NCBI GenBank assembly: GCA_048320885.1
Contig: JBLWFJ010000001.1
Location: 1,349,642-1,413,641, forward strand
DNA: 64,000 bases
Direction: 5' to 3'
Origin: Nannocystaceae bacterium ST9
Lineage (GTDB): Bacteria > Myxococcota_A > Polyangia > Nannocystales > Nannocystaceae
Of this stretch, positions 21,520 through 37,475 are shown piece by piece. Under the pieces are notes generated by a model. It was not told the DNA's origin. It saw only the letters and a program-made list of their open reading frames with translations, and did not search any database. The stretch's first letter is position 1, and every line of letters starts with the position of its first letter. The position numbers and the translations under genes were made by a program.

Positions 21520-21620
21520 GGCTTGCAACTCGCACGATCGCGATCACTGGGGCTCGCGATTCGCAGGGCCTCGCGAACCCGCATCGGCGCGAGACCCAGA
21601 CCCAGCCAGCCGAGCCGCGC

Positions 21621-21636
21621 TGGCACGAGCGATGCA
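21621..21636 (+). promoter_or_regulatory. sigma-54-type promoter upstream of kdpF-kdpABC
   Basis: TGGCACG-AGCG-ATGCA versus the consensus TGGCACG-N4-TTGCW (one mismatch, exact GG/GC spacing). Lies in the 230-bp gap after kdpE. Predicted start near 21647. Confidence 0.45.
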
Positions 21637-21649
21637 CGGCGAGCGGGGC

Positions 21650-21754
21650 ATGCAGATCCTCGTGTTTCTCGCCATCGGCTGGGTCGCCTACGCGGCTTGC
21701 CTGGCCATCCTGCCCGCGATCGATCGCGTCGTTCATGAAGGAGTCGGGCGATGA
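21650..21754 (+). CDS. 34-aa hydrophobic sORF immediately upstream of kdpF
   Basis: MQILVFLAIGWVAYAACLAILPAIDRVVHEGVGR. G/C third positions over the first ~27 codons. Its stop overlaps the kdpF ATG (ATGA). Too short for the ORF track. Confidence 0.25.
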   Translation: MQILVFLAIGWVAYAACLAILPAIDRVVHEGVGR

Positions 21755-21831
21755 CCTGGATCTCCGCCGTGTGTGCCGGGCTGGCGTTCGGCTACCTGCT
21801 CTTCGCGATCTTGCGGCCCGAACGATTCTGA
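21751..21831 (+). CDS. kdpF: K+-transporting ATPase subunit F
   Basis: 26 aa: MTWISAVCAGLAFGYLLFAILRPERF. The C-terminal YLL.A.LRPE(R/K)F is the KdpF signature. GAAGGAG SD upstream. 13 nt before kdpA. Confidence 0.75.
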   Translation: MTWISAVCAGLAFGYLLFAILRPERF

Positions 21832-21844
21832 ACCGGAGACCACC

Positions 21845-23515
21845 GTGCACGACCTCGTCTACGCCTTCGCGCTGCTCGCCGCAGCGCTCGCGCTGTCCTG
21901 GCCGCTCGGGCGAGCCATGGCCGCCATCGCCCAACCTCCACGCAGCCAGCCCGACCGGCTCGATCGCGCGATCGTCCGGGTGCTCGGACCGGCCGCGATC
22001 GCCGAGCAGACCTGGAAGAGCTACGCGCTCGCGCTGCTCGGGTTCAACGCGCTGATGTTCACGATCACCTACGCGATCTTGATCTTGCAGGGCTCGCTGC
22101 CGCTCAACCCGGCCGGCAAACCCGGGCTCGAGCCCTCGCTGGCGTTCAACACCGCGATGTCGTTCGCGACCAACACCAACTTGCAGCACTACTCCGGCGA
22201 GGTCGCGCTGTCCTACTTCTCGCAGCTGTTCGGGCTGACCTGGCTGCAGTTCGTGTCGGCCGCGACCGGCATCGCGGCGTTGGCCGCCATCGCGCGAATG
22301 CTCGGTCCGAGCGGCGCCGTCGGCAACTATGCCCGCGATCTGATCCGCTTCACCCTGCTGATCCTGCTGCCGCTCGCGCTGGTCGTCGGCGCCACGCTGA
22401 TCGTCGCCGGCACACCGATGACCTTCGCCGGGCCGGTCGAGCTGACCACGCTCGAGGGCGACTCGCAGACGATCGCTCGCGGACCGGTCGCGGCGATGGT
22501 CGCGATCAAGCAGCTCGGGACCAACGGCGGCGGCTACTTCGGCCCCAACAGCACGCACCCGCTCGAGAGCCCGAGCTTCTTCACCTGCTCGCTCGAGAAC
22601 CTGTCGATCCTCGTGGTCTCGATGGCCTGCCTGTGGATGTTCGGCCGACTGATCGGGCGGATGCGCGACGCCTGGCTGCTCTTCGCGGTCATGGCCGCGC
22701 TCTTCGTGGCCATGGTGATCCCGGCCGTGCTGCTCGAGGCCCAGCCCAACCCCGGCCTCGCCGATCTGCCGATCGTCGAAGCCCGCGGCAACCTCGAGGG
22801 CAAGGAGCTGCGCTTCGGCAGCGCGGCCGGCCCGGTCTGGGCGGTGACGACGACCGCGACCAGCAACGGCTCGGTCGCGGCCATGCACGACAGCCTCAAC
22901 CCGCTGACCGGGCTGCTGCCGATGATCGGCATGTGGCTCAACGTCAGCTACGGCGGCGTCGGGGTCGGGCTGATCGGCATGCTGCTCTACGTGGTCGTCG
23001 CGGTGTTCATCGCCGGGCTGATGGTCGGGCGCACGCCCGAGTATCTCGGGCGCAAGGTCGAGGTCCGCGAGATGAAGCTGGCCGCGCTGGCCTTGCTGCT
23101 GCATCCCTTGCTGATCCTCGGTGGCACCGCATTGTTCGTGGCCACGCCCCTCGGGACCGAGACCATGTCCAACCCGGGCAGCCACGGGTTCTCGCAGGTG
23201 CTCTACGAGATGAGCTCGGCCGCGGCCAACAACGGCTCGGGCTTCGAGGGCCTGGCCGACAACACCACGCCCTGGAACCTGATCACCGGGCTGTGGATGT
23301 TCCTCGGTCGCTACCTGCCGATCGTGCTGCCGCTTTCGATCGCGGCCTCGCTCGCCCGCAAGCAACGCGTACCCGAGAGCGCCGGCACGCTGCGAACCGA
23401 CTCGCCGACCTTCGCGCTGGTCCTGCTCGGCTGCGTGGTCCTGCTCGGCGCGCTGCTCTTTCTTCCCGCCGCCGTGCTCGGCCCGATCGCCGAACACCTG
23501 GAGATGACCCGATGA
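21845..23515 (+). CDS. kdpA: K+-transporting ATPase subunit A
   Basis: ORF 21773..23515 trimmed to GTG 21845 (556 aa). Texts [36 protein letters not shown]. Polytopic. Confidence 0.9.
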
Positions 23516-25572
23516 ACGAACCCATCACGCGGCGAGCGAAGACTCGCTCGTTGGTCACGCCCGAGCTGGCCCGCGCCGCGCTGCGCGAGTCGGTGATCAT
23601 GCTCGACCCCCGACGAATGGCCCGCAACCCGGTGATGTTCGTGACCGAGGTCGGGGCCCTGCTGAGCACGATCGCGGCCGCGCTCGCGCTCGGCTCGGGC
23701 GACGCCGGCTTCCCGATCACGATCTCGATCGTGCTGTGGCTGACGGTGCTGTTCGCCAACTTCGCCGAGGCGCTGGCCGAGGCGCGCGGCAAGGCGCAGA
23801 CCCAGGCGCTGCGAGCCACTCGCACGCAGACCGAGGCTCGTCGGCGGCGCGACGACGGCACGATCGAGTCGGTCGGGTCGACCGAGCTGCGCAAGGGCGA
23901 CGTGATCGTCGTCGCGCTCGGCGAGCTGATCGCCGCCGACGGCGAGATCATCGAGGGCGTGGCCAGCATCGACGAGTCGGCGATCACCGGCGAGTCGGCG
24001 CCGGTCGTGCGCGAGGCCGGAGGTGATCGCTCGGGCGTGACCGGAGGCACCCGCGTGCTCTCGGACTCGATCGTCGTGCAGGTCACCGCCGCGCCCGGCG
24101 ACTCGTTCCTCGATCGAATGATCGCGCTGGTCGAGGGCGCGCAGCGGCAAAAGACGCCCAACGAGATCGCCCTGACCGTCACGCTCGCCGGGCTCACGCT
24201 GGCGTTCTTGCTGGTCACGGTCTCGCTGGTCCCGATGGCCGCCTACTTCGACGCGACCATCGACATCCCGACCGCGGTCTCCCTGCTGGTCTGCCTGATC
24301 CCGACCACGATCGGCGGGCTGCTGGCGGCGATCGGGCTGGCCGGCATGGATCGGGCGTTGGCCGCCAACGTGCTGGCCAAGTCGGGCAAGGCGGTCGAGC
24401 TGGCCGGCGACATCGACACGGTCCTGCTCGACAAGACCGGCACGATCACCCGCGGTAACCGGCAAGCCACGCATCTGTATGCGGCCGGGACCTTCGAGGA
24501 GCGCGAGCTGGCCGAGGCCGCCATGTTGGCCTCGCTCGCCGACACGACCCCGGAGGGCCGCTCGATCGTCGGGCTCGGCGAGGGCCTGCTCGGGCGGCGG
24601 CCGAGCGAGCCGCTCGGGGCCAAGCCGATCAGCTTCTCGGCCCAGACCCGGCTCAGCGGGATCGACCTCGCCGAGGGCACGAGCATCCGCAAGGGCTCGG
24701 TCGACGCGATCGCCAAGTGGTTGATCGAGCATGGCAGCTCGCTGCCCGACGCGGTCCGCACGATGACCGAGGCGATCGGCCGCGAGGGCGCGACCCCGCT
24801 GGTCGTCGTGAGGGCGCGACCCGGCCAGGCCGCGCACACGCTCGGCGTGGTCCAGCTGACCGACGTGCTCAAGCCCGGGATCGCGGCTCGGCTCGCCCGC
24901 CTGCGCGCGATGGGCCTGCGCGTGGTCATGGTCACCGGCGACAACCCGCTGACCGCCAAGGCGATCGCCGGCAAGGCCGGGGTCGACGACTTCATCGCCG
25001 AGGCCACGCCCGAGGACAAGCTGGCCTACATCCGCCGCGAGCAGGCCGAGGGCCGGCTGATCGCGATGATGGGCGACGGGACCAACGACGCGCCCGCGCT
25101 CGCCCAGGCCGACATCGGCGTGGCCATGAACTCGGGCACCCAGGCGGCCAAGGAGGCCGGCAACATGGTCGATCTCGACAGCGATCCGACCAAGCTGATC
25201 GAGGTGGTCGAGATCGGCAAGCAGCTGTTGATGACCCGCGGCGCGCTGACGACCTTCTCGATCGCCAACGACGTCGCCAAGTACTTCGCGATCGTGCCGG
25301 CGCTCTTCGTCGCCGCGCTGCCGCAGCTGGCCGCGCTCGACGTGATGGCCCTCGGCTCGCCGCGCAGCGCGATCTTGTCGGCGGTGCTCTTCAACGCCAT
25401 CGTGATCCCGCTGCTGGTGCCGATCGCCCTGCGGGGCGTTCGCTACCGGCCCGAGGGCGCCGACAAGCTGCTGCGCCGCAACTTGCTGATCTACGGGCTC
25501 GGCGGGGTCGCGGCGCCCTTCGTCGGGATCAAGCTCTTCGACCTCGCGCTCGCGCTGATCGGGATGCCATGA
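23512..25572 (+). CDS. kdpB: K+-transporting P-type ATPase subunit B
   Basis: ATGA overlap with kdpA. Motifs [55 protein letters not shown]. 686 aa, in frame with the tail of ORF 22633..25572. Confidence 0.95.
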
Positions 25573-26153
25573 CCAGCTTCACGTCCACGCTTCGAATCCT
25601 CTCGGGTCTCACGCTCGGCACGCTCGCGCTGGTCGGCGCCTACGCGCTGATCTTGCTCGGCGTCGGGCTCGGCCTCGCGCCGGCGGCCGCCGAGGGCTCG
25701 CTGATCCGCGGGCCCGAAGGCGAGCTCGTCGGCAGTCGCCTGGTCGGCCAGTCGTTCACCGAGCCCGGCTACCTGTGGCCGCGGCCCTCGGCGGTCGACC
25801 ACGCCGCGGACGCGGCCGGCGGCAGCAACCTCGCGGCCAGCAACCCGGCCCTGCGCGAGCGAGTGCTCGCCGACCTCGCTCGCCATGCGGCCAGCGACGA
25901 GCGACCGATCCCCGCCGATCTCGTGACCGCGTCGGGCTCGGGCCTCGACCCCGACATCACGCTGGCCGGCGCGCTCTACCAGGCCCCGCGGATCGCCGCC
26001 GCACGCCGGGTCGATCGCCACGAGATCGAAGAGCGGCTGCGCTCGCTCGCCCACACGCCCAACCCCTGGTCGCCGCCGCTGATCAACGTGCTCGAGACCA
26101 ACCTCGAGCTCGATCGCACCTTCGGCGCGCTCCCGACGAGGCCGGCGGAATGA
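25569..26153 (+). CDS. kdpC: K+-transporting ATPase subunit C
   Basis: ATGA overlap with kdpB. One N-terminal TM, texts GSRLVGQSF and [12 protein letters not shown]. 194 aa. Confidence 0.9.
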
Positions 26154-27292
26154 GCCCGACGGATCGCGCCGAGGACTTCCTCGCGCTGGTTCGTCGGGCT
26201 CGCCAAGGTCGGCTCAAGCTCTTCCTCGGGCCCGCGCCCGGCGTCGGCAAGACCTACCGGATGCTGCAAGAGGCCCAGCAACTGAGCGCGACCGGGGTCG
26301 ACGTGGTCATCGGCGTGATCGAGACCCACGGACGACCCGAGACCGCGGCGCTGATCGAGGGGCTCGAGCAGGTGCCGATGCGGCGGATCGAGTATCGCGG
26401 GGTCGGCCTCGACGAGCTCGACCTCGACGGCGTCCTCGCCCGCGCGCCCGAGATCGCGCTGATCGACGAGCTCGCGCACACCAACGCGCCCGGCAGCCGC
26501 AACCGCAAGCGTCACCAGGACGTGCTCGATCTGCTCGAGGCCGGGATCCACGTGTTCGCCACGCTCAACGTCCAACACCTCGAGAGCCTCAACGACCTGG
26601 TCTCGCGCAGGGTCGGCGTGCAGGTCCGCGAGACCGTGCCCGACGTGTTCCTGCGCCGCGCCGATCAGATCGTCAACATCGATCTGCCGGCCGAGGATCT
26701 GCTCACCCGCCTGCGCGCGGGTCGGATCTATCCGCTCGAGCGGGTCGAGCGGGCGCTCGCCAACTTCTTTCAGGCCGGCAAGCTCGAGAGCCTGCGCGAG
26801 CTGGCCTTGCGCGAGGTCGCCGAGTCGATCGAGCGGGCCCAGCAGCGCGAGCGCGAGGTCAGCGGAGAGCGTGTGGGCCGAGTCGCGCTCAGTCGGCTGA
26901 TGGTCGGGCTCTCGAGCTCGCCGAACGCCGCGGCGCTGCTGCGTCGCGCGTCGCGACTGGCCGGTCGACTCAACGCGCATTGGTTCGCGGTCCATGTCCA
27001 GACCCGACGCGACGCGCCCGATCGGATCAGCGCGACCGACCAGCGCCGCCTGTTCGAGGCCCAACAGCTGGCGGTCGACCTCGGCGCGGAGGTCCAGGAG
27101 CTCGAGAGCGACGACGTGATCGCGGCGCTGATCGACTTCGCCAGCGCGCATGGGGTCTCGGACATCGTGATCGGGGCTCCGCCGCCGACCCACCCGATCC
27201 TGGCGTGGTTCACCCGCAGCGTCGCCCGGCGAATGCTCGACCACGCCAACCGCTTCAACCTCCACGTGCTGGCCACGGAGGTCTCGCCATGA
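26150..27292 (+). CDS. stand-alone KdpD N-terminal sensor domain plus Usp-like domain (no TM, no kinase)
   Basis: ATGA overlap with kdpC. LKLFLGPAPGVGKTYRML (P-loop), ALIDELAHTNAPGSRNRKRHQDV, TLNVQHLESLND, then Usp-like LMVGLSSSPNAAALLRRASRLA...DIVIG. 380 aa. Confidence 0.85.
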   Translation: MSPTDRAEDFLALVRRARQGRLKLFLGPAPGVGKTYRMLQEAQQLSATGVDVVIGVIETHGRPETAALIEGLEQVPMRRIEYRGVGLDELDLDGVLARAPEIALIDELAHTNAPGSRNRKRHQDVLDLLEAGIHVFATLNVQHLESLNDLVSRRVGVQVRETVPDVFLRRADQIVNIDLPAEDLLTRLRAGRIYPLERVERALANFFQAGKLESLRELALREVAESIERAQQREREVSGERVGRVALSRLMVGLSSSPNAAALLRRASRLAGRLNAHWFAVHVQTRRDAPDRISATDQRRLFEAQQLAVDLGAEVQELESDDVIAALIDFASAHGVSDIVIGAPPPTHPILAWFTRSVARRMLDHANRFNLHVLATEVSP

Positions 27293-29109
27293 CGCTGCGG
27301 ATCAAGCTCTTGCTCGCCCAGCTGCCCATGCTGCTGGCGACCGCGCTGACGATCGCGGTCGCGATGCTGGCCGCGCGTCGCTTGGGCGGCGAGCCGGACG
27401 CGATCATCGAGGAGAACTTTCGCAGCTTCGATGCCGCACGCGCGATGCTCACCGCGCTCGAGCGGATCGACGCCGAGCTGACCCGCGGCGCGCTGGTCGG
27501 TGAGCCGCCCGATCCCGCGAGCGTCGACGCGGCGGTGGCCGAGTTCGAGGCGCCGCTGGCGATTCAGCGGGACAACGTCACCGAGCCCGGCGAGCACGAG
27601 GCGACCGCCGAGCTGGTCGCGGCTTGGCAGCGCTACCGAGCCGAGCTGCCGCTCGAGCCCGGCGCGAGCCTCGAGGATCACCGCGCCCGCTCCGACCAGC
27701 TGCGCGATCGAATCGAGGTGATCTTCGCGATCAACCGCGCTGGCATGCGCAGCAAGGCGGACGCGGCTCGCGTCGAAGCTCGCCGCGAGACGATCGTGAT
27801 CGCGGCGACCGGACTGATCGCGCTGGCCGTCGCGCTGCCCTTCGGCGTCGTCCTGGTCCGTCGACTGCTGCGCCCGGTCAAGGTCATGGCCGCGACCGTG
27901 GCCCGGCTCGCCAGCGGCGACTTCGACGTCCGAGTTCGGCTCGAGGGTCGCGGCGACGACGAGGTCCATCGCTTGGCGCTCGCGTTCAACGAGATGGCCG
28001 AGCGGCTCGGGGCCTATCGCGCCAGCTCGCTCGGTGATCTGCTCGAGGCCAACCTGCGCATGCAGTCGGTCGTCGACAGCCTGCCCGAGGCCGTGCTGGT
28101 CTGCGACACCGCCGGGGTCGTGGTTCAGGCCAATGTTTCGGCGCATCGGCTCTTCGGTGAGCCGACCAGCCTCGCGCGCCTGCCCAGCTCGATCGCCGGC
28201 CCGGTCCGCGCGGTGTTCGATCGCGTGGTCCGAACCGAGCGGGCCAGCGAGTGGGCCGGGATCGCCGACGCGCTGGCCTTCCCGCGCGGGACCGAGGTCG
28301 TGTGGCTGGCCGTCGGCGCGACCCCGGTGCTGCGTGACCAACGGTTGGCCGCGGTCACGCTCGCGCTGCGCGACGTCAGCCAGGCCCGTCGACTCGAGGG
28401 CTTTCGCGGCGACCTGGTCTCGGCCGCCGCCCACGAGCTGCGGACCCCGCTGACCTCGCTGCACATGGCCGTGCATCTGTGCCTGGAGGAGGCCGCCGGC
28501 CCACTCGACGATCGCCAGAAGGATCTGCTGACGGCCGCGCGCTCCGACTGCGAGCGCCTGCAGTCGGTCGTCGACGAGCTCCTCGATCTCGCGCGGGCCG
28601 AGGCCGGCACGATCCGGCTCGAGCTGCGCCCGCTGGTCGTGCAGTCGGTCCTGCACGAGGCGCTCGCCCGCCACGAGCTCGACGCCGAGCGCCAGGGCGT
28701 CACGATCGTCGTGGTCACGCCCGAGGCCGGCCTGCGCGTGCTCGCCGATCGCTCGAGGCTCGCGCAGGTGTTCGACAACCTGATCACCAACGCGCTGCTG
28801 CACGCCGCGGGCGTCCGGCGGATCGAGCTGGGCGCCGAGCAGGTCGGCGAGCGAGTCCACTTCCGGGTCGACGACGACGGCCCCGGCATCCCGCTCGAGC
28901 TTCGGCCCCGCGTGTTCGACAAGTTCGTGCGCGGACCCGCGACCGAGGCCGAGGGCACCGGGCTCGGGCTCAGCATCGTTCGCGATCTCGTGCGAGCGCA
29001 TCGCGGCGAGGTCGGGGTCGACGACGCGGCGATCGGCGGCGCGCGAGTGTGGTTCGAGCTGCCGACCGCCGCGGACGGCGGACCGATCCACGACATGCTC
29101 GCGCCGTGA
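27289..29109 (+). CDS. sensor histidine kinase (2 TM, HAMP, PAS-like, HisKA, HATPase)
   Basis: ATG 27289 overlaps the upstream stop (ATGA). HAMP text VRRLLRPVKVMAATVARLASGDFDVRV...EVHRLALAFNEMAERL, H-box SAAAHELRTPL, G-box GTGLGLSIVRDLV. Confidence 0.85.
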   Translation: MTLRIKLLLAQLPMLLATALTIAVAMLAARRLGGEPDAIIEENFRSFDAARAMLTALERIDAELTRGALVGEPPDPASVDAAVAEFEAPLAIQRDNVTEPGEHEATAELVAAWQRYRAELPLEPGASLEDHRARSDQLRDRIEVIFAINRAGMRSKADAARVEARRETIVIAATGLIALAVALPFGVVLVRRLLRPVKVMAATVARLASGDFDVRVRLEGRGDDEVHRLALAFNEMAERLGAYRASSLGDLLEANLRMQSVVDSLPEAVLVCDTAGVVVQANVSAHRLFGEPTSLARLPSSIAGPVRAVFDRVVRTERASEWAGIADALAFPRGTEVVWLAVGATPVLRDQRLAAVTLALRDVSQARRLEGFRGDLVSAAAHELRTPLTSLHMAVHLCLEEAAGPLDDRQKDLLTAARSDCERLQSVVDELLDLARAEAGTIRLELRPLVVQSVLHEALARHELDAERQGVTIVVVTPEAGLRVLADRSRLAQVFDNLITNALLHAAGVRRIELGAEQVGERVHFRVDDDGPGIPLELRPRVFDKFVRGPATEAEGTGLGLSIVRDLVRAHRGEVGVDDAAIGGARVWFELPTAADGGPIHDMLAP

Positions 29110-29164: not shown

Positions 29165-30514
29165 GTGGACGAGCTCGAGCCGCCGCTGACCAAGACCCAT
29201 CGCGCCGCGCTGGCCATCCACGCCGAAAAACGCCCGGGTCGACTGAAGCTGCGCTTGGTCGACGGGCCGAGCGGGTCGACCGACTTCGAGCTGACCAAGC
29301 CGACGATTCAGGTCGGCCGAAGCCCGATGGCCGACCTCGTGATCGACGAGCGCTCGATCAGCAAGATCCACTTCGAGCTGCGCCTGGCCGGGGGCGGCGT
29401 CGACCTGCGCGACCGCGAGAGCACCAACGGTTGCTGGCTGCAGGGTTGTCGAGTCTTCCACGCGCGCTTGCGGGTCGGCGACTCGTTCCGCGCCGGCGAC
29501 CTCCAGTTCATGATCGTCGGCGTCGACGAGGTCGACGTCGTGGTCACCTTGGCCCCGCGCTGCGGCGCGCTGCAAGGCGCGAGCGTGGTGATGCGCGAGC
29601 TGTTCGCGTCGATCGACGCGCTCTCGCTCGCGCCGCTCGACATCCTGATCCTCGGCGAGACCGGCACCGGCAAGGAGCTGACCGCCCGCACGCTTCATCA
29701 GCTCTCCGAGCGCCGATCCAAGCCCTTCGTGACCCTCGACTGCGGCGCGATCTCGGCCTCGCTCGCCGAGGGCACGCTCTTCGGGTTTCGCAAGGGCGCG
29801 TTCACGGGCGCCGACCATGATCAGCCGGGCGTGTTCGAGGAGGCCAACCGCGGGACCATCTTCCTCGACGAGATCGGCGAGCTCGTGCCCGAGCTGCAAG
29901 TCAAGCTGCTGCGAGTGCTCGAGCGACGCGAGGTCACCCGCATCGGCGAGCCGGCCAAGCCGCGAGCGCTCGACATCCGGGTCGTCGCGGCCACGCATCG
30001 CGACTTGCGGCGCGAGGTGGCCGAGGGCCGCTTCCGCGAGGATCTGTTCTATCGCTTGGCCCGCGGCCTGATCACGCTCCCACCCCTGCGCGAGCGTGGC
30101 GAGGACATCCTCATGCTCGCCGACGATTTCCTGGGCAAGCTGCGCGACGAGTTCGGCCGCGACGTCCGAATGAGCGCCGCGTGCAGGGACGCGATGCTGC
30201 GGCATCCCTGGCCCGGCAACGTCCGCGAGCTGCGGAACTGCATCGAGCAGGCCTTCCACATCAAGCGCTCGGGCGAGCTCGCGGCGAGCGACCTGCGACT
30301 CGGCACCCTGGCGTGGAAGAGCCAAGGCACGTCCGAGCTGGCCGACGCGACCAAGACCTACGCCGACGCCCACGTCGCGCTGGACAAGGTGTTCTTGGCC
30401 AAGGTGCTCGAGAGCACGAGCGGCAACCTCTCGGAGGCGGCCCGCCGACTCGGCCTCAGCCGCGACACGCTGCGAGTCAAGCTGAAGGCCGCTCGGCTCT
30501 ACCCCGACGGCTGA
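29165..30514 (+). CDS. FHA-domain sigma-54-dependent transcriptional activator
   Basis: GTG start. FHA-like [25 protein letters not shown]...STNG, then AAA+ [18 protein letters not shown] (GAFTGA loop), [18 protein letters not shown], and a C-terminal Fis-type [19 protein letters not shown]. Confidence 0.85.
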
Positions 30515-31255
30515 GGGATTCTCGTCACCTGTCGCGCCGTCATGGTTCCGGCACGATCGTGAGCCAGACATCGACCGGTTCGTGCAACACGTCGACGCGC
30601 CAGACCCCCGAGTGCTCGAAGTCCACGATCGAGTAGTCGTCGACCAGCGTGAAGAACACCGGCTGGCGAACTCGCTCATCGAGGGCCTCTTGCTCGGTCG
30701 CTGGGTTTTCGGCCAGACAGCGCTCGTACCAGATCACCAGCCCCTCGGAGCGCTCCAGCCGGTAGGTCCCGGGCTCGGGCATGTCGATCAGGAAGCTCTG
30801 ATACATGTCCGTGGAGCCGTTGGCCTCGTTCTGATTGGTCTTCTCGTAGGGCCCGAGCGTGGCCTCGTCCTCACAGTCGAACTTCGCCTCGAACACCCAG
30901 CCACCTTCCGCTCGGGCCTCGAGCAGCAGCATGTCGGCGCACTGCCGATGTTGAATCCACATCGCCGGCGACTGGCTCGCGTAGTCCGTCGCCAGCGACG
31001 CTCCATACGCGGACTCCATGGCCGACCAGACGCCCTCGTCGTAGGTCGCGGTCCGGTAGAGCGCCGCAAATTCCTCCGGGCCCAATTGCTCGGCCAGCCA
31101 ACGCGTGAAGTGGCCTGCACGAGAATAGAAGGGGCCGAAGTCGCTCGAGTGGACCTCGGAAAACTCTCGCGGATCGGACAGCGATTCGTTGATCGAAGGC
31201 TCGAAGCTGACGGCGAGGCCCTCGGCCAAGATCGAGGGGGCACCGGTTCGAATCT
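30507..31255. repeat. segmental duplication, copy A (~750 bp)
   Basis: Matches 31837-32593 with few differences, including ~328 nt that look identical by eye (30578-30905 versus 31916-32243) and a 6-nt indel near the 3' end of the gene. It also covers the stop codon of the upstream activator gene. Confidence 0.85.
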
Positions 31256-31673
31256 CGCATGCGACTCCGTGCGCGAGCTCGTGGTATGCGGTCCATGGCG
31301 TCGCGAACACGACCCCGTCGCGGCTGGTACATGCCGCCGCATCGGGGTTGGAGCAGTAGTCTTCGATGTCTTTGATCGCGTAGACCGGCACTCGCCTCTG
31401 AACGTCGATCCCGAGTTGGTCGGCCACGTACTGCACGTGGCGCTCGTAGTCGATCACCGACCCGGCACAGAGGAAGCGGTTTGGACCGATGTGGACATCG
31501 AGGTGCTCGGTCTCGTAGCTCACCGGGAGGTCCGGCACGTCCGAGACGATCTCCTCGAAGTCCAGACAAGTGAGCGGTCCCTCGGGCTCCGGGTCATGAG
31601 TCTCGTTGCATGCCAGGCTCAGCGCTCCCGCCAGTCCAAGGCTGACACGTCGGATGCAGTGGCGTTCGAGCAT
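30540..31673 (-). CDS. lipoprotein with HExxH motif (putative zinc metallopeptidase)
   Basis: ORF trimmed to ATG 31673: MLERHCIRRVSLGLAGALSLAC (lipobox). Contains AYHELAHGVAC (HExxH). No family recognised beyond that. Confidence 0.6.
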   Translation of the reverse strand: MLERHCIRRVSLGLAGALSLACNETHDPEPEGPLTCLDFEEIVSDVPDLPVSYETEHLDVHIGPNRFLCAGSVIDYERHVQYVADQLGIDVQRRVPVYAIKDIEDYCSNPDAAACTSRDGVVFATPWTAYHELAHGVACEIRTGAPSILAEGLAVSFEPSINESLSDPREFSEVHSSDFGPFYSRAGHFTRWLAEQLGPEEFAALYRTATYDEGVWSAMESAYGASLATDYASQSPAMWIQHRQCADMLLLEARAEGGWVFEAKFDCEDEATLGPYEKTNQNEANGSTDMYQSFLIDMPEPGTYRLERSEGLVIWYERCLAENPATEQEALDERVRQPVFFTLVDDYSIVDFEHSGVWRVDVLHEPVDVWLTIVPEP

Positions 31674-31836
31674 GACCGCTCCAGTAAAGCACGCCCTTCT
31701 GGGCATCCTCCATCGCCATCCTCACGTCGAACATGCTGCGAGTCGAGCTGAAGCCCGAGGGATTCTTGGTCGGAGGCTGACGAACGACTCGTCGACCTTC
31801 GTTGTTCGGACCAGATGCGCCGCGCGAGCGCCCGAG

Positions 31837-32593
31837 CGGCGAGGGATTTCTCGTCACCTGTCGTGCCGTCATGGTTCTGGCACGATCGTGAACCAGACAT
31901 CGACCGGCGGCCCATGTTCGTGCAACACGTCGACGCGCCAGACCCCCGAGTGCTCGAAGTCCACGATCGAGTAGTCGTCGACCAGCGTGAAGAACACCGG
32001 CTGGCGAACTCGCTCATCGAGGGCCTCTTGCTCGGTCGCTGGGTTTTCGGCCAGACAGCGCTCGTACCAGATCACCAGCCCCTCGGAGCGCTCCAGCCGG
32101 TAGGTCCCGGGCTCGGGCATGTCGATCAGGAAGCTCTGATACATGTCCGTGGAGCCGTTGGCCTCGTTCTGATTGGTCTTCTCGTAGGGCCCGAGCGTGG
32201 CCTCGTCCTCACAGTCGAACTTCGCCTCGAACACCCAGCCACCCTCCGCTCGGGGTTCGAGCAGCGGCATGTCGGCGCACTGCCGATGTTGAATCCACAT
32301 CGCCGGCGATTGGCTCGCGTAGTCCGTCGCCAGCGACGCTCCGTAGGCGGACTCCATCGCCGACCAGACCCCCTCGTCGTAGGTCGCGGTCCGGTAGAGC
32401 GCCGCAAACTCCTCCGGGCCCAATTGCTCGGCCAGCCAACGCGTGAAGTGGCCTGCGCGATCGTAGTAGGGGCTGAATTCGTCCAAATGGACCTCGGAAA
32501 ACTCTCGAGGATCGGACGGCCACTCGTTGATCGAGGGCTCGAAGCTGACGGCGAGGCCCTCCGTCAAGATCGAGGGCGCCCCGGTTCGAATCG
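31837..32593. repeat. segmental duplication, copy B
   Basis: See copy A. Similarity ends abruptly after CCGGTTCGAATC (32581-32592). Confidence 0.85.
31869..32593 (-). pseudogene. 5'-truncated duplicate of the HExxH lipoprotein gene (C-terminal ~240 codons only)
   Basis: The tail of ORF 31869..32771, from ...IRTGAPSIL onward, is nearly identical to the paralog at 30540..31673. The signal peptide, lipobox and HExxH are missing. The listed N-terminus is antisense to a plus-strand coding frame. Confidence 0.6.
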
Positions 32594-33135
32594 AGCCCTT
32601 CGTGCCGCAGCCCGACCAAGCCTGCGACTCGACGCCCAACATCCCGCTGGTCGACGACGAATCGAGCACGCATGGCATCGCGGCCGCGGGCGCGGTCACG
32701 ATGTTCGGGCCCAACGATGACGCGGTCACCGAGCTCTCGAACATCAGCTTCGAGGTCCGCGAGGTGTTCAAGCGCGACGGCTCGATCGACGTCCACCTCG
32801 CGGGCTTCGACGCCGACGCCGACGAGGGCGGCTACGGCTCGCTCTCGTTCCTCGATCCGCACATCCACCTCGCCGCGCCGGTCAGCGCCCCGCTCGTCGC
32901 CGACACCGTCCGCTTCCCCGCGGGCTCGCTGCGCATGGAGGTCTCCGGCGTGGTCGTCTCGAACGGCGAGGTCGCGTTTGGGGGTCAGCGCTCGTCCGGC
33001 ATCTACGTCAACACCGGCACGGCCACGCTCGCCCGCACGCCGGACGGCGGCTTCGCGTTCGTGGACGCGCCCTTCGAAGCGGGCGGCTACCTGTTCGTGC
33101 TGAACACCGAGCAAGCGAGCGCGCAGGCCGAGTGA
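32594..33135 (+). CDS. hypothetical protein, probably 5'-truncated at the duplication junction (possible restart at ATG 32701)
   Basis: The frame of ORF 32527..33135 shows strong G/C third positions from the junction (32594) to the TGA at 33135 and is followed by a perfect 16-bp terminator hairpin. No signal peptide and no credible native start. Confidence 0.4.
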
Positions 33136-33183: not shown

Positions 33184-34521
33184 TCACTCGCCGGACTCGA
33201 AGCGCTTGAGCCGACGCCAGAGCGTCGAAGGGTTGATCCCGAGGATCTTCGCCGCCTGCTCGCGAGTCTCGCACTCGGCCAGTACGCCGAGGATGTGGCG
33301 CTGCTCGATCGCCGCGAGCGTGGTTCGACTGCCGAGCTCGGGCCCTCGCTCGACCCGGGCGCGCACGCGCTGCGAGAGCTGCTCGGCGGCGATGGTGGGT
33401 CCGCGCGCCAGGACCAGCGCGCGCTCCATCTCGTTGCGAAGCTCGCGGACGTTGCCCGGCCAGGCGTGGCCGCGCAGGGTCGCCTCGGCCTCGTGGCTCA
33501 GGCTCGGCGTCGGTCGATTCGCTCGCATCGCCGCGCGGGCCAGGAAGTGGCGGGCGAGCTCGGGAATGTCGGCCGCTCGCTCGCGCAGCGAAGGGACCTC
33601 GACCTCGATCACGTTGAGCCGGTAGAGCAGGTCGAGGCGCATGCGACCGGCGGCGACCTCGAGGTCGACGTCGCGGTTGGTCGCCGACACGATCCGCAGG
33701 TCGGCCCGCCGCGTCCGCGCCTCGCCGACCCGCTCGAACTCGAAGTCCTGGACGAAGCGCAGCAGCTTGGCCTGCGCGCCGCTGCCGATCTCGGCGATCT
33801 CGTCGAGGAACAAGGTCCCGCCCTCGGCCTCCTCGACGCGGCCGACCTGATCGCGGACCGCCCCGGTGAACGCCCCGCGGACATGACCGAAGAGCTCGCT
33901 GGTCAGCAGCTCGTCGCCGAGCGTCGGGCAGTTGATCGTGACCAGCGGACGCTCGGCTCGCGCGCTGCCGCGGTGAAGCAGGCGAGCGAGCACGCCCTTG
34001 CCGGTCCCGCTCTCGCCTCGCAGCAGCACGGGCGCGTCGCTGCTCGCGGCTTGCCGGATCGTATCGATCGCCGCCTGCATCGCGGCCGAGTGGGTGTGCA
34101 GCAGGACCTGGTCGGGATCGCCGGCCTCGGCTCGCCCGCCGACGTCGAGGACGTCGAGCTCGACGCGCGCTCGCTCGACGACCTCGCGGACCTGCGCCGG
34201 CGTGAAGGGCTTGGCCAGGTAGTCGCGCGCGCCTCGACGGATCGCCTCGACCGCGGTCGCGATGCTCGCGTAGGCCGTGATCAGCACGGCGTAGAGCTGC
34301 GGGTGATCGTGCACGAGCGAGGCGGTCAGCGCGATCCCGTCGTCGCAGCCGAGCCGGAGATCGACGAACGCGAGATCGAAGGCCTTGCTCTGCGCGGCCG
34401 CTTGCGCCTCGGCGGCACTGGCCGCGCGATGGACCGCGCAGCCGATCGCCTCAAGGCACATCCCGAGCGTCGCGCGAATGTTGGGCTCGTCGTCGACGAC
34501 CAGCACCCGAAGCCCGCTCAT
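33184..34521 (-). CDS. NtrC-family sigma-54-dependent response regulator
   Basis: REC (RVLVVDDEP...DLAFVDLRLG...AKPF), AAA+ ([36 protein letters not shown]) and a C-terminal HTH (AAKILGINPSTLWRRL). Confidence 0.85.
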   Translation of the reverse strand: MSGLRVLVVDDEPNIRATLGMCLEAIGCAVHRAASAAEAQAAAQSKAFDLAFVDLRLGCDDGIALTASLVHDHPQLYAVLITAYASIATAVEAIRRGARDYLAKPFTPAQVREVVERARVELDVLDVGGRAEAGDPDQVLLHTHSAAMQAAIDTIRQAASSDAPVLLRGESGTGKGVLARLLHRGSARAERPLVTINCPTLGDELLTSELFGHVRGAFTGAVRDQVGRVEEAEGGTLFLDEIAEIGSGAQAKLLRFVQDFEFERVGEARTRRADLRIVSATNRDVDLEVAAGRMRLDLLYRLNVIEVEVPSLRERAADIPELARHFLARAAMRANRPTPSLSHEAEATLRGHAWPGNVRELRNEMERALVLARGPTIAAEQLSQRVRARVERGPELGSRTTLAAIEQRHILGVLAECETREQAAKILGINPSTLWRRLKRFESGE

Positions 34522-34997
34522 GCCTCGCCTCGCAAGATCGCGAGCACTTCGCTCGCTCGCTCGGCCGCCGAGATCCGATCGATCGTGCTCGGATCGGCGA
34601 ACCAGCGGCTCACGCTCGCCAGCGCCCGCAGGTGCTCGCTGGGCTGCATCGACGAGACCAGCGCGACGAACACTCGGACCGGCCGATCGTCGGGGGCCCC
34701 GAACGCGATCCCCTGCGCCGCGATCCCGAGCACCGCTCGCGACCCGGTGATCTCGGCCTTGGTGTGCGGCAACGCCAGTCCGCGACCGATCGCCGTCGAG
34801 CCCAACGCCTCGCGCTCGCGCAGCCCGCTCGCGAGCTTCGCCGACGACAGCCCGGTCTGCTCGGCCAGCGCGAGCGCGAGCTCGCCGAGCACCTCGTCGG
34901 CCTCGCGTGCGCGCAGCGTCACGATCGCGGATTCGCCGGAGAGCAGGTCGTCGATCGGCACGCCGGCGATATAGCCAGGGTCGGGCCGCGAGGGCAT
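34518..34997 (-). CDS. PTS EIIA-Ntr (PtsN)-like protein, paralog 2
   Basis: EIIA type-2 text: ...REREALGSTAIGRGLALPHTKAE... (phospho-His site), VRVFVALVSS. ATGA overlap with the NtrC-like gene. Start set at ATG 34997; the track uses TTG 35000. Confidence 0.75.
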   Translation of the reverse strand: MPSRPDPGYIAGVPIDDLLSGESAIVTLRAREADEVLGELALALAEQTGLSSAKLASGLREREALGSTAIGRGLALPHTKAEITGSRAVLGIAAQGIAFGAPDDRPVRVFVALVSSMQPSEHLRALASVSRWFADPSTIDRISAAERASEVLAILRGEA

Positions 34998-35024
34998 CAA
35001 GAAGCCATAAAGAGGCGCGGCGGT

Positions 35025-35486
35025 TCAGGCCTCGCCGCGCAGGATCGCCAGCACGCTCGCCGGCTGCCCGGCGGCGGCGACGACTCGATCGATCACGCGC
35101 GGATCGACGAAGCTCCGGCCGACCGTCGCCAGCGCCCGCAGGTGCTCGTTGGGCTGGGTCGACGAGATCAACGCGACGAACACACGCACCGGCCGATCGT
35201 CGAGCGCCGCGAACGAGATCCCCTCGGGCGCGATGCCCAGCACGCCTCGCGATCCGCTGATCTCGGCGGCCTTGGCATGCGGCAGCGCGAGCCCGTGGCC
35301 GAGCCCGGTCGAGCCCAGCGCCTCGCGCTCGCGCAGCCCGGCTTCGATCGCGATCGCCGAGAGCCCGGTCTCACGGGCGAGCGCGAGAGCCAGCTCGGCG
35401 AGCACCTCGTCGGCGCTGCGGGCCGCGAGCATCACGATCGCGGACTCCCCGGACAGGATGTCGTCGAGCGGCACGGCCGAGCTCAC
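35025..35486 (-). CDS. PTS EIIA-Ntr (PtsN)-like protein, paralog 1
   Basis: Tail of ORF 35025..36845. GTG 35486 overlaps the upstream TGA (GTGA). ...REREALGSTGLGHGLALPHAKAAE..., VRVFVALISS. Collinear with paralog 2. Confidence 0.75.
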   Translation of the reverse strand: MSSAVPLDDILSGESAIVMLAARSADEVLAELALALARETGLSAIAIEAGLREREALGSTGLGHGLALPHAKAAEISGSRGVLGIAPEGISFAALDDRPVRVFVALISSTQPNEHLRALATVGRSFVDPRVIDRVVAAAGQPASVLAILRGEA

Positions 35487-36406
35487 TTCTTTTTCTTCTT
35501 CGCCTTCTTCTTCTGGAATTTCTTGGCGTGCGCGACGTTGCGGTTGGCCTTCTCGATCACCCGGCCGTCTTGCTGCATGCGCTGCGGGGCCTCGCCGACC
35601 TCTTGGATCAGCTGGCCCTCGGCGAGCTGAAGCAGCTGGAGCTGGCTGGCGTAGGCGAAGGGCGAGAGCCCGAGCGCCATCCGGCGATCGAGCTGGGTCA
35701 GCGCGACCTGGGCCCGGATCGGGATGCGGATGTTGACGACCTGGACCTCGGCGTGGCGCTCGTGACGAGGATCGGCCAGCGCCTTGTCGCCGCGGGTGAA
35801 GTGCTGCCGGCAACACGAGGGCCGGACCTCCCAGATCCGACAGCGCCCCTTGGCCTGATCGAGGAAGGGGCAGGGCAGGCCGCGCTCGGCGAACTGCTTG
35901 CGACCGAGGCCGGCGGCCTTGCTGGTCATGCGGATCTTCTCGGGATCCTTGCCGGTGTGCAGCGCCTGGATGTCCTTGAACTGCTGCTCGCCGAGCTCGC
36001 CGAGCTTCTGAGCGACCTGCGGAAAGTCCTTCCAGGTTCGGATGGTCCGGTAGATCAGCAGCGACTCGGGGCCGCTGACGCCGAAGGGCCCGGCGAAGCA
36101 GGCACCCTTGCCCTCGGGGGTCCCGGCCGCCGCAGCGTCGTCGAGCCCGAGGCTGGCGCGGACCGACTCGATGTAGCGGTCGTGCGCGGCGTGAAAGGTT
36201 TCGACCTGCTCGAAGAACCCCTTGGGCAGACGCTTGAGCTTGCTGACGTCGGCGATCCCCGGCAGCCCGGCGAGCACGTCGACCGCCTTCTGCATGGCGG
36301 CGGTGTGCGGCTGGGCGGCCTTGCGTGCGGCACGAGGGATTCGCGTGACCCGGTCGCGCGGCAGCTTGATGCGCGAACCGAACAGGGCGGCGAGGAAGTC
36401 GAGCAC
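35483..36406 (-). CDS. Cys-cluster (YkgJ/CxxCxxCC-like) protein with poly-lysine C-terminus
   Basis: The text LPCPFLDQAKGRCRIWEVRPSCCRQHF fits the C-terminal half of the YkgJ zinc/iron-chelating domain. The tail is AKKFQKKKAKKKKK. The start is uncertain: GTG 36406 was chosen and ATG 36295 is possible. The ORF track N-terminus overlaps the divergent lipoprotein gene. Confidence 0.5.
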   Translation of the reverse strand: MLDFLAALFGSRIKLPRDRVTRIPRAARKAAQPHTAAMQKAVDVLAGLPGIADVSKLKRLPKGFFEQVETFHAAHDRYIESVRASLGLDDAAAAGTPEGKGACFAGPFGVSGPESLLIYRTIRTWKDFPQVAQKLGELGEQQFKDIQALHTGKDPEKIRMTSKAAGLGRKQFAERGLPCPFLDQAKGRCRIWEVRPSCCRQHFTRGDKALADPRHERHAEVQVVNIRIPIRAQVALTQLDRRMALGLSPFAYASQLQLLQLAEGQLIQEVGEAPQRMQQDGRVIEKANRNVAHAKKFQKKKAKKKKK

Positions 36407-36542
36407 GGCGGCTCGGCTTGTAGCAGGCGCCCGCGAGACCCGAAAGCAGCGCGGGCGAAGTGAGCGAAGGCCCCCGCGAGCCCGGTCGGGGACGGCTTGC
36501 GTGGTGTTGATACCGCCGGCTGCGCAAGTCATCCTCGCGGCC

Positions 36543-37475
36543 ATGCATCGCCGTGCCGTCTCGCTCTCGCTTCCTCGCTTCGCCCGCGGCCTCGTGCTCG
36601 CGGCTCTGGTCCTCGCGGTCCCGGCCGGCTGCGACAAGTCGGGCGGCACCAGTGATCCCGGCGGCGGTACGGACAAGCCGAGCAAGGCCGGCGGCATCGA
36701 GTTCGCCTACGCCGAGAGCTTCGCGATCGACGGCCAGGTCAGCGTCGAGATCGAGAGCGACAGCCCCGAGGGCAAGGGCGCGGCCAAGATCGTGGCCAAG
36801 ACCCGACTCGACGCCGCGCCGGCGGCCGGCAAGACCAAGATCCACGCCAAGGTGCTCGAGCTGGTCGAGTTCAACGGCAGCGGCTCGCTCGATCCCGAGT
36901 TCATCAAGCAGCAGATGGTCACGGCCGGCACCGCCGACTTCGATCTGCTCGCCACGCTGAAGACCGCCGAAGAGTGGTCGATCGTCGACGCCCGCGGCGA
37001 GACCGACGACGACGCCACCAAGGCGCTGGCCGAGAACGCCAACCCCAAGCCGATGGGCGGCGACCAGTTCGGGCTCTTCGTCCTGCCCGACCTGCCGAGC
37101 GTCCCGCTGGAGATCGGCAAGCAGGTCAAGCTCCCGACCGAGTCGGAGGAGCAGGACATGTTCGGTCAGCCGGTCCCGACCGAGTCCGACGTCACCTGGA
37201 CGCTGGTCTCGATCGGCGACGTCGGCGGGCGCAAGGTCGCCAAGCTCGAGGTCCTGCTCGAGACCTCGGGCGCGGCCGAGCTGCAGGGCGGCCAGGCGAT
37301 GCTCTCGATCGCCTCCGAGGCCAGCTTCACGATCGAGTTCGACGTCGACGCCAAGCTGCCGATCTCGCTGACCGGCGAGTCGACCCAGGAGCTCGCGTTC
37401 GAGAGCGCGGGCCAGAGCGGCAGCGTGCAGAACACGACCAAGTTCGCCGCCACCTACACGCCCGCGGGCGTCTAA
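36543..37475 (+). CDS. lipoprotein (310 aa), function unknown
   Basis: ORF 36222..37475 trimmed to ATG 36543: MHRRAVSLSLPRFARGLVLAALVLAVPAGC (lipobox), then a Gly/Ser/Asp/Lys linker. Confidence 0.7.
   Translation: MHRRAVSLSLPRFARGLVLAALVLAVPAGCDKSGGTSDPGGGTDKPSKAGGIEFAYAESFAIDGQVSVEIESDSPEGKGAAKIVAKTRLDAAPAAGKTKIHAKVLELVEFNGSGSLDPEFIKQQMVTAGTADFDLLATLKTAEEWSIVDARGETDDDATKALAENANPKPMGGDQFGLFVLPDLPSVPLEIGKQVKLPTESEEQDMFGQPVPTESDVTWTLVSIGDVGGRKVAKLEVLLETSGAAELQGGQAMLSIASEASFTIEFDVDAKLPISLTGESTQELAFESAGQSGSVQNTTKFAATYTPAGV

Follow-up and report, generated by a model that had tools for sequence, protein, structure and literature searches.

Tandem PtsN-like genes and an NtrC-type regulator near the kdp operon of Nannocystaceae bacterium ST9: the probable regulatory end of a potassium-uptake island

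What draws two EIIA-Ntr-like paralogues, an NtrC-type response regulator and a cysteine-cluster (Cys) protein into one apparent operon some 4 kb from a kdp locus? The question is raised by a 64-kb stretch of DNA (hereafter the window; G+C content ~70%) from the marine-type myxobacterium Nannocystaceae bacterium ST9, a source established by a homologue search in which the product of the first EIIA gene, EIIA-1, was identical to an ST9 protein. The original prediction for this stretch was that the duplicated EIIA proteins may be wired to a sigma-54 activator and possibly to a split Kdp sensor. Comparison with related loci makes it reasonably probable that this region forms the regulatory end of an island for potassium uptake (Kdp). 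The four-gene 'operon' is a lineage-specific assembly of a resident gene, a duplicated K+-linked PtsN-like gene and a displaced sigma-54-type Kdp regulator. What is new is the combination of these ingredients, a Nannocystaceae PtsN-like clade that accompanies K+ loci, and a wider distribution of sigma-54-type Kdp systems; each ingredient has a published precedent.

The four-gene unit and the kdp island

The unit at 33184-36406 consists of four minus-strand open reading frames (ORFs) with a coding-type third-position G+C content (0.90-0.92 by codon-position analysis):

35483-36406, minus strand: YkgJ-family Cys-cluster protein, GTG start, 307 amino acids (aa), first gene of the unit
35025-35486, minus strand: EIIA-1, PtsN-like protein with a PTS_EIIA_2 domain, GTG start, 153 aa
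34518-34997, minus strand: EIIA-2, PtsN-like protein with a PTS_EIIA_2 domain, ATG start, 159 aa
33184-34521, minus strand: NtrC-type response regulator, ATG start, 445 aa

The coordinates and junctions claimed for these genes were all recovered in the sequence: the stop of the Cys gene and the GTG start of EIIA-1 share a GTGA overlap at 35483-35486, a gap of 27 nucleotides (nt; 34998-35024) separates the EIIA-1 stop from the EIIA-2 ATG at 34997, and the EIIA-2 stop and the regulator start form an ATGA overlap at 34518-34521. NCBI gene calls agree on the 307-aa Cys protein and the 153-aa EIIA-1 and place the start of EIIA-2 12 codons downstream, giving 147 aa; we favour the ATG start, and with it the 27-nt gap, because the N-terminal extension PGY(T/I)AGVP is conserved in several homologues. 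Inside the unit no sigma-70-like promoter and no intrinsic terminator were predicted, a result that is uninformative at 70% G+C. At the front of the Cys/EIIA operon there is no good sigma-54 promoter or TGCA-N3-TGCA site, and the nearest -24/-12 match lacks the GG.

A complete kdp island lies on the opposite strand and comprises the following features:

19739-20821, plus strand: DUF4118-HisKA-HATPase kinase, corresponding to the C-terminal half of KdpD, no GAF match (Pfam)
20818-21519, plus strand: KdpE, OmpR-type regulator (Pfam)
21524-21534, plus strand: candidate binding site for the activator, TGCAACTCGCA, which departs from TGCA-N3-TGCA at one position and precedes the -24 element by 97 nt
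21621-21636, plus strand: predicted sigma-54-type promoter TGGCACGAGCGATGCA, 14 nt upstream of a small ORF
21650-21754, plus strand: hydrophobic 34-aa small ORF MQILVFLAIGWVAYAACLAILPAIDRVVHEGVGR (read from the sequence)
21751-21831, plus strand: kdpF (read from the sequence)
21845-23515, plus strand: kdpA (Pfam KdpA)
23551-25572, plus strand: kdpB (Pfam E1-E2_ATPase/Hydrolase)
25569-26153, plus strand: kdpC (Pfam KdpC)
26150-27292, plus strand: stand-alone KdpD N-terminal sensor plus Usp, 380 aa (PF02702, E = 2e-91; PF00582)
27289-29109, plus strand: HAMP-PAS-HisKA-HATPase kinase ('KinB-like'), last conserved gene of the kdp operon (Pfam)
29165-30514, plus strand: FHA-sigma54(GAFTGA)-HTH activator, at the end of the island

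The distance of ~4 kb reported between the unit and the kdp locus amounts to 4.1 kb when measured from the end of the kinase gene (29109), the last kdp-operon gene conserved in relatives, to the regulator stop. The neighbouring multi-piece Kdp sensor had also been recognised correctly: the KdpD-N/Usp protein and the kinases are separate genes, KdpE is present, and a classical single-polypeptide KdpD (KdpD-N, Usp, transmembrane region, GAF, HisKA, HATPase) is not encoded at this locus. The statement that the window holds no kinase, EI-Ntr or NPr gene stands for the latter two, no homologues of which were found, and fails for the first, since two histidine kinases lie in the kdp locus itself.

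Neighbourhoods of the regulator, its kinase and the EIIA genes

The regulator has the REC-AAA+(GAFTGA)-HTH architecture assigned to it, with the Pfam domains Response_reg (PF00072), Sigma54_activat (PF00158, E = 4e-60), AAA_lid_14 (PF25601) and HTH_8 (PF02954) and the motif RGAFTGA. Its translation contains D54, T82 and K104, the signature residues of the receiver domain, and the protein thus combines a receiver with an acceptor Asp, an AAA+ domain with a GAFTGA loop and a Fis-type helix-turn-helix, as in NtrC-family enhancer-binding proteins. It scores below every NCBIfam equivalog cut-off and is none of the named NtrC, ZraR, AtoC and similar proteins.

Eight distinct loci with an orthologue of the HAMP-PAS kinase were read (L094/95, L096, L097, L098, L099, L091, L058 and L065; compared loci are designated by L numbers throughout). 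In all eight, the orthologue (39-79% identity) directly follows the stand-alone KdpD-N/Usp gene at the end of kdpFABC; its homologues carry the JGI name NtrC-family kinase KinB. A REC-sigma54-HTH regulator 55-80% identical to that of the window lies near the kinase in seven of these loci, L065 being the exception, and is directly convergent with it in five of the seven and adjacent or within ~1.3 kb in six. A porin-like gene stands between regulator and kinase in L091, the regulator is located upstream of kdpA in L096, and in L094, the nearest complete relative, regulator and kinase are convergent with overlapping 3' ends. The loci belong to Nannocystaceae, a Polyangiaceae metagenome-assembled genome (MAG) and a Candidatus Binatia MAG. 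Because the two genes overlap tail to tail in L094, the ~4-kb stretch that parts them in ST9, occupied by the FHA activator and lower-GC genes (G+C 0.652 over 30-32 kb), looks like an insertion. Judging from this gene order, the cognate kinase of the NtrC-type regulator is most likely the one encoded at 27289-29109 in the window, and we infer that the regulator is a sigma-54-dependent activator of kdpFABC.

In the lineage of L003 and L061, the regulator is not nearby and KdpE is retained, and in L003 the kinase is reduced to a 417-aa HAMP-PAS part (10448-11701; cluster of 7 member sequences); the sigma-54 branch looks as if it has been co-lost. As in the window, a DUF4118 kinase-KdpE pair lies upstream of kdpF in L003.

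A precedent for this organisation is known from Desulfovibrio vulgaris Hildenborough, in which the site bound by DVU3334, a sigma-54-dependent regulator, lies upstream of kdpF (Rajeev et al. 2011, PMC3333781) and the sensor encoded in the kdp operon is split into DVU3336 (K+ sensor plus UspA) and DVU3335 (kinase); DVU3334-type orthologues were reported only in two other Deltaproteobacteria (PMC3333781). As in DVU3334-3339, two separate ORFs, one for the KdpD sensor/Usp and one for a sensory-box kinase, come after kdpFABC, and a sigma-54 regulator accompanies kdpFABC; this linkage of regulator, kdpFABC and split KdpD was found in the window, L058, L091, L094/95, L096, L097, L098 and L099. A system of this type, likened by architecture and not by DVU3334 sequence, is therefore seen here in Nannocystaceae, the Polyangiaceae MAG and the Binatia MAG. 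In D. vulgaris the regulator is encoded in the same operon (DVU3334-3339), whereas in the loci read here it is mostly convergent and in ST9 displaced by 4 kb; the D. vulgaris operon as described mentions no EIIA, and ST9 additionally keeps a KdpE-type pair. Beyond the Desulfovibrio precedent, our literature searches returned nothing direct on sigma-54 with kdpFABC, nor on PtsN in myxobacteria.

The promoter regions provide a further line of comparison. GG-N10-GC sites that match 8-11 of the 11 consensus positions occur just upstream of the small ORF or kdpF in seven loci:

Window: TGGCACGAGCGATGCA, 10 of 11
L094: TGGCATGACCGATGCA, 9 of 11
L065/63: TGGCACGTCGATTGCT, 10 of 11 (scored against ...TTGCA)
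L097: TGGCACGCATATTGCA, 11 of 11
L098: GGGCACGCCGGTTGCG, 9 of 11
L096 and L099: weaker versions, 8 of 11

The background of sites matching at least 9 of 11 positions is 0.046 per kb per strand. In L003, with its truncated kinase and no regulator nearby, there is no sigma-54 site at the homologous position upstream of kdpF (17245-17410). An exact TGCA-N3-TGCA dyad precedes the -24 element by 55-121 nt in five of the seven kdp promoters, and 6 of the 17 exact copies in the 1.41 Mb of compared DNA lie within 121 nt upstream of kdp promoters. The combination of -24/-12 elements with an upstream dyad is the one expected of a DVU3334-type system, and the DVU3334 site CGTTACATTTTGTAACG is itself a TACA-N3-TGTA dyad with the same 3-nt spacer (PMC3333781).

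Both EIIA proteins were confirmed as such by the profile search with PF00359 (PTS_EIIA_2), with E = 1e-23 for EIIA-2 and 2e-19 for EIIA-1 (84.3 and 70.3 bits against a cut-off of 27); the matches span profile positions 3-142 of 144 and thus the whole fold of type 2 EIIA proteins of the phosphotransferase system (PTS). The two are 71% identical, and the phospho-His motif G.GLALPH ascribed to them is present as GHGLALPH and GRGLALPH. PtsN is the top-ranked NCBIfam model for each, ahead of the fructose and mannitol EIIAs, and the solved structures that best match a profile of the clade are all PtsN entries (2a0j, 1a6j, 4gqx and 3urr, E = 1e-22 to 4e-18), the mannitol EIIA structure being matched more weakly (E = 2e-9). 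The clade is discrete, with ~44 proteins at E < 1e-30 followed by a gap to ~1e-18, where ordinary PtsN proteins begin. Residues R54, E55, G58, T60, P69, H70 and H115 are common to the clade and to E. coli PtsN; H70 (in the EIIA-1 motif GHGLALPH) and H115 are invariant in 27 clade members and align with the 'AIPH' His and the 'HL' His of the latter, respectively. The 'AIPH' His of E. coli PtsN is the phosphorylation site, His73. EIIA-1 is the more divergent paralogue, with no database match closer than ~70%, the level of its own paralogue, and EIIA-2 groups with metagenomic EIIAs linked to NtrC or KdpE genes. The two ST9 proteins belong to a Nannocystaceae-specific PtsN-like clade, a lineage of its own.

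The rpoN-operon context (hpf, rapZ, ptsO) was not found, and no RpoN, NPr or HPr homologue was detected in the window or in any clade locus. Apart from an unrelated metagenomic locus (L070), the tblastn probes for HPr, NPr, EI and RpoN matched nothing but a PPDK-type protein of the window; this PPDK_N protein at 50268-52961 has the sole PEP-utilizer domain there. HPr/NPr and Enzyme I homologues were not found in the 64-kb window, to which the search was limited.

In place of the rpoN context, all 11 distinct loci of the clade have EIIA beside kdp, trkH/trkA, a KdpE gene with a DUF4118 kinase, or a kdp-type NtrC regulator:

Window: tandem EIIA pair and regulator at a distance of 4 kb from kdp
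L001: EIIA with a regulator fragment (78% identity) after it
L062 and L091: EIIA divergent from the regulator, and next to kdp in L091
L058: EIIA within the kdp operon, immediately behind the kinase
L063-65: kdp sigma-54 promoter immediately downstream of EIIA
L003 and L061: EIIA and kdp transcribed towards each other
L090: EIIA adjacent to KdpE and a DUF4118 kinase
L002 and L092: EIIA between a KdpE pair and trkH-trkA

A metagenome scan with the alignment of the EIIA clade gave only five clade loci, on short contigs, the other matches being distant EIIAs. An informative case is L006, a MAG whose Cys protein, at 89% identity, resembles that of ST9 more than any other. Here the Cys gene is directly followed by a TauE gene, which in ST9 lies on the far side of the kdp island, and a 14-codon remnant of an EIIA N-terminus (VVLDDIVADESAIS, 10927-10968) is found right after the Cys stop. 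The stub and the missing island indicate that kdp genes, regulators and EIIA were deleted as one block and the Cys gene was left intact. Taken together, the K+ linkage of 11 loci in several arrangements and the co-deletion in L006 argue for a functional link rather than inherited gene order.

In a neighbour-joining tree of the EIIAs, calculated with no bootstrap values, L002 and L091 pair as sisters, and the two ST9 copies share one subclade. Among the loci seen, only ST9 combines a KdpE-type with a sigma-54-type Kdp system, and it has two EIIAs, a match of counts in one example. We considered the idea that each two-component system has an EIIA paralogue of its own and rejected it, as NtrC-linked and KdpE-linked EIIAs are not separated in the tree.

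The first gene of the unit has a different history. Its product had been described as YkgJ-like, which holds in so far as it exceeds the gathering cut-off of PF03692 (CxxCxxCC; 30.3 bits against 23), with a match confined to profile positions 19-69 of 85; the CxxCxxCC stretch itself, and with it the N-terminal cluster, is not present in the protein or its aligned homologues. Agreement with YkgJ/PF03692 extends over the C-terminal half of the motif (C-P-F-L ... C-R-I-W ... R-P-x-x-C-R), whereas in place of CxxCxxCC the ~307-aa ST9 protein has an N-terminal region that is long and helical and contains just one invariant Cys. The only invariant Cys residues are C103, C179, C189 and C199. Unlike YkgJ, proteins of the ST9 type, which end in a poly-Lys C-terminal tail, are restricted to Nannocystales. 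The AlphaFold2 model, a confident one (pLDDT, the predicted local distance difference test score, 84; predicted template modelling score, pTM, 0.80), has no relative among solved structures. A genome scan identified homologues of ~307 aa and 48-90% identity in 55 Nannocystales genomes, including Enhygromyxa, Plesiocystis, Nannocystis and Paraliomyxa. By tblastn synteny, the gene detected most often beside the Cys gene (38 of the 55) is the divergent one at 36501-37475, and neither EIIA nor a kdp gene lies within 10 kb in 53 of the 55, the exceptions being L058 and L006 (the stub). The notion of a conserved four-gene unit consequently had to be given up, since the Cys gene usually adjoins this divergent gene and not EIIA. 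The metagenomic contigs L003-L005, with a Cys protein ~86% identical to that of ST9, carry one EIIA behind the Cys gene, directly next to the kdp operon. The Cys protein is probably outside the K+ module, a neighbour and not a partner. The divergent gene, which forms a divergent pair with the Cys gene, encodes a 324-aa protein with a lipoprotein-like N-terminus and no Pfam match.

A scheme for kdp control and its rivals

The explanation we favour, and to which we give somewhat better than even chances, combines a Kdp island, a sigma-54 regulator and EIIA modulators; it draws on domain content, gene order, orthologue neighbourhoods and the conservation of promoter and upstream site. According to this scheme, the NtrC-type protein (33184-34521) would be the response-regulator partner of the HAMP-PAS kinase (27289-29109), which in turn would work with the stand-alone KdpD N-terminal/Usp sensor (26150-27292). 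Once phosphorylated, the regulator would bind upstream of the promoter at 21621-21636 and drive transcription of the small ORF, kdpFABC, the detached KdpD N-terminal gene and the kinase gene, as in the scheme for DVU3334-3336. The two EIIAs would be PtsN-like modulators that tune kdp output; by analogy with E. coli and rhizobial PtsN, their target would most likely be one of the Kdp kinases, both of them or the detached sensor, with binding dependent on the state of His70, and kdp transcription would be adjusted in this way. In ST9, an insertion of ~4 kb would have parted the regulator from the kinase and a duplication of EIIA would have given the tandem pair. The Cys-cluster gene would be a resident neighbour, and it is probably from its promoter that the entire unit is now transcribed.

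For the EIIA part of the scheme, two known systems are instructive. In the rhizobia Sinorhizobium fredii and Rhizobium leguminosarum, ptsN2 is located in the kdp cluster, and both PtsN1 and PtsN2 bind KdpD and aid growth at low K+ (PMC9239096, PMC13104625). The likeness to ST9 consists of extra PtsN paralogues that keep the phospho-His, one of them with its gene in the regulatory cluster of kdp. In rhizobia the partner is a classical one-piece KdpD, contacted via its GAF domain, with KdpE, whereas KdpD of ST9 is in pieces and GAF was not detected; in ST9, moreover, the adjoining regulator is sigma-54 dependent, and the paralogues are in tandem, form a separate clade and fall short of the cut-off for the PtsN equivalog. 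In E. coli, PtsN binds to the transmitter of KdpD, to TrkA and to the exporter YcgO (PMC13104625, PMC9239096), and it shares with the ST9 proteins the fold, the phospho-His motif and a functional link to K+ uptake. In contrast to the ST9 EIIAs, which are physically tied to K+ loci and have no rpoN, NPr or EI gene nearby, E. coli ptsN is a single-copy gene of the rpoN operon, unlinked to kdp or trk. The rhizobial ptsN2 and DVU3334, precedents for the two main ingredients, had not figured in the original prediction.

Several observations weigh against the scheme. A classical KdpE pair is likewise present in ST9, and kdp may be regulated mainly by it. The loci L094, L096, L097, L098 and L099 have kdp, kinase and regulator genes and no EIIA within 8-10 kb, and EIIA is therefore optional for the system. 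The sigma-54 match at kdp is one of two in the window that have no more than one mismatch, against a chance expectation of 0.83, and what gives it weight is the conservation of its position in relatives; the TGCA-N3-TGCA copy (TGCAACTCGCA) of the window has one mismatch and taken alone is not above chance. The EIIAs score 66.1 and 68.3 bits (68 for EIIA-1) with the PtsN equivalog TIGR01419, well short of its cut-off of 138.7; the suggested wiring of EIIA to a sigma-54 activator and a split Kdp sensor has the conserved gene neighbourhood on its side. Phosphorylation of the EIIAs is putative, the search for EI-Ntr and NPr having covered the 64-kb window only. Co-transcription of the four genes is presumed only from their spacing and the absence of predicted signals, and the pairing of kinase and regulator, the activation of kdp and the binding partners and phosphorylation of the EIIAs are inferred as well.

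Among the rival explanations, the best surviving one, in our view unlikely, is that the EIIAs regulate K+ transporters (KdpFABC or Trk) post-translationally, their operon position serving only co-expression. It would account for the EIIA gene immediately before trkH-trkA in L002 and L092 and agrees with the binding of TrkA and YcgO by E. coli PtsN. Most loci, however, tie EIIA to regulators and not to transporter subunits, and no trk gene was noticed among the Pfam-scanned ORFs of the window, in which no trk-aimed search was made. Regulation of transporters is also compatible with kinase binding, as both occur in E. coli.

Slightly less likely still, the EIIAs might act directly on the NtrC-type activator and gate its ATPase or DNA binding, as LevR-type sigma-54 activators of Firmicutes are controlled by PTS domains. 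The ATGA overlap couples EIIA-2 translationally to the regulator, and EIIA and regulator are immediate neighbours in L001, L062, L091 and L058. Yet closely related EIIAs lie beside KdpE/DUF4118 pairs or TrkH/TrkA with no adjacent kdp-type NtrC (L090, L092, L003 and L061), and L002 has only a 42%-identical NtrC-type regulator ~4 kb from EIIA. The tree does not part NtrC-linked from KdpE-linked EIIAs, and the documented PtsN targets in K+ control are all kinases or transporters.

It is improbable that the Cys protein and the EIIAs constitute a functional pair, for example a metal or redox sensor that feeds EIIA, and the four genes a true signalling operon. The GTGA overlap in ST9 and the 13-nt spacing in L003-L005 speak for it, as does L058, which independently has its kdp/EIIA/NtrC module next to the pair of Cys and divergent genes, on the other side. 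Against this stand the 53 of 55 genomes whose Cys gene has no EIIA or kdp gene within 10 kb and whose commonest partner is the divergent gene, the many loci of the EIIA clade (most of them) that have no Cys gene, and L006, which lost EIIA and kept the Cys gene intact. A fortuitous juxtaposition of general pleiotropic PtsN proteins with kdp through rearrangement, for which the pleiotropy of PtsN in Proteobacteria and the lineage-specific 4-kb insertion of lower G+C content (0.652) in ST9 could be cited, is very improbable given that 11 of 11 independent loci are K+-linked in different arrangements and that the kdp block and EIIA were lost together in L006.

Implications and neighbouring genes

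The purpose of the PTS-Ntr is debated, and K+ homeostasis is one proposed unifying theme. A PtsN-like gene that is kept with and lost with Kdp/Trk loci, far from the model Proteobacteria, provides independent evolutionary support for this theme. The locus is furthermore a compact system for asking which piece of a split KdpD is contacted by an EIIA, a question that can be posed because sensor domain, membrane kinase and transmitter are separate proteins. As for the sigma-54-type Kdp system, mapped experimentally only in D. vulgaris and thought to be nearly confined there, it is now found in Myxococcota and Binatia, at loci that share a conserved promoter architecture.

The favoured scheme can be joined with these considerations in a more speculative reading, to which we assign a low probability: the Nannocystaceae EIIA would have left the rpoN operon and become a dedicated component of K+ homeostasis that travels with kdp or trk, and the ST9 duplicates would each tune one Kdp system, feeding phosphoenolpyruvate (PEP)/nitrogen status separately into the sigma-70 and sigma-54 control of the pump. 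If the EIIAs of the clade are the only PtsN homologues in the lineage, they would represent a natural case of a PTS-Ntr with K+ control as its primary job.

In the kdp operon, the sigma-54 promoter is followed first by the small ORF and then by kdpF, whose start is overlapped by the stop of the small ORF. An equivalent position is taken by small ORFs in L003, L094, L065, L096, L097, L098 and L099; sequence similarity, judged by eye, is clear for L003 and L094 only. The product may be an extra, unannotated small subunit or a leader peptide of kdp operons.

Two further kinds of genes adjoin components of these systems in other loci. A Kup-type K+ transporter gene (K_trans, 11221-13116) directly adjoins the kdp-linked NtrC-type regulator in L098, a further instance in which K+ genes are grouped about this regulator. 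Genes for the putative beta-barrel porin BBP2 (PF07642) recur beside kdp, EIIA and regulator genes in four unrelated loci:

L002, 8624-9805: BBP2 gene
L091, 7197-8435: BBP2 gene
L094, 2659-4140: BBP2 gene
L098, 724-1890: BBP2 gene

The BBP2 protein might be an outer-membrane entry route for K+; its gene was not noticed in the ST9 window.

Within the stretch between the kinase and the regulator (29165-33135), the FHA-sigma54 activator is kdp-linked in no relative, a lipoprotein-like protein with a HELAH motif is encoded at 30540-31673, and two candidate ORFs overlap on opposite strands (31869-32771, minus; 32527-33135, plus). At a lenient threshold, Pfam returned nothing for the genes between the kdp operon and the regulator, nor for the divergent gene beyond the Cys gene. 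The other sigma-54-like match of the window with at most one mismatch, TGGCACTTCGATGGCA at 11577-11592 on the minus strand, is located upstream of two small ORFs on that strand, 11200-11460 and 10889-11191. At 14221-17682 on the plus strand, two tandem DUF2330 paralogues of ~570 aa each lie upstream of an SspB-like gene.

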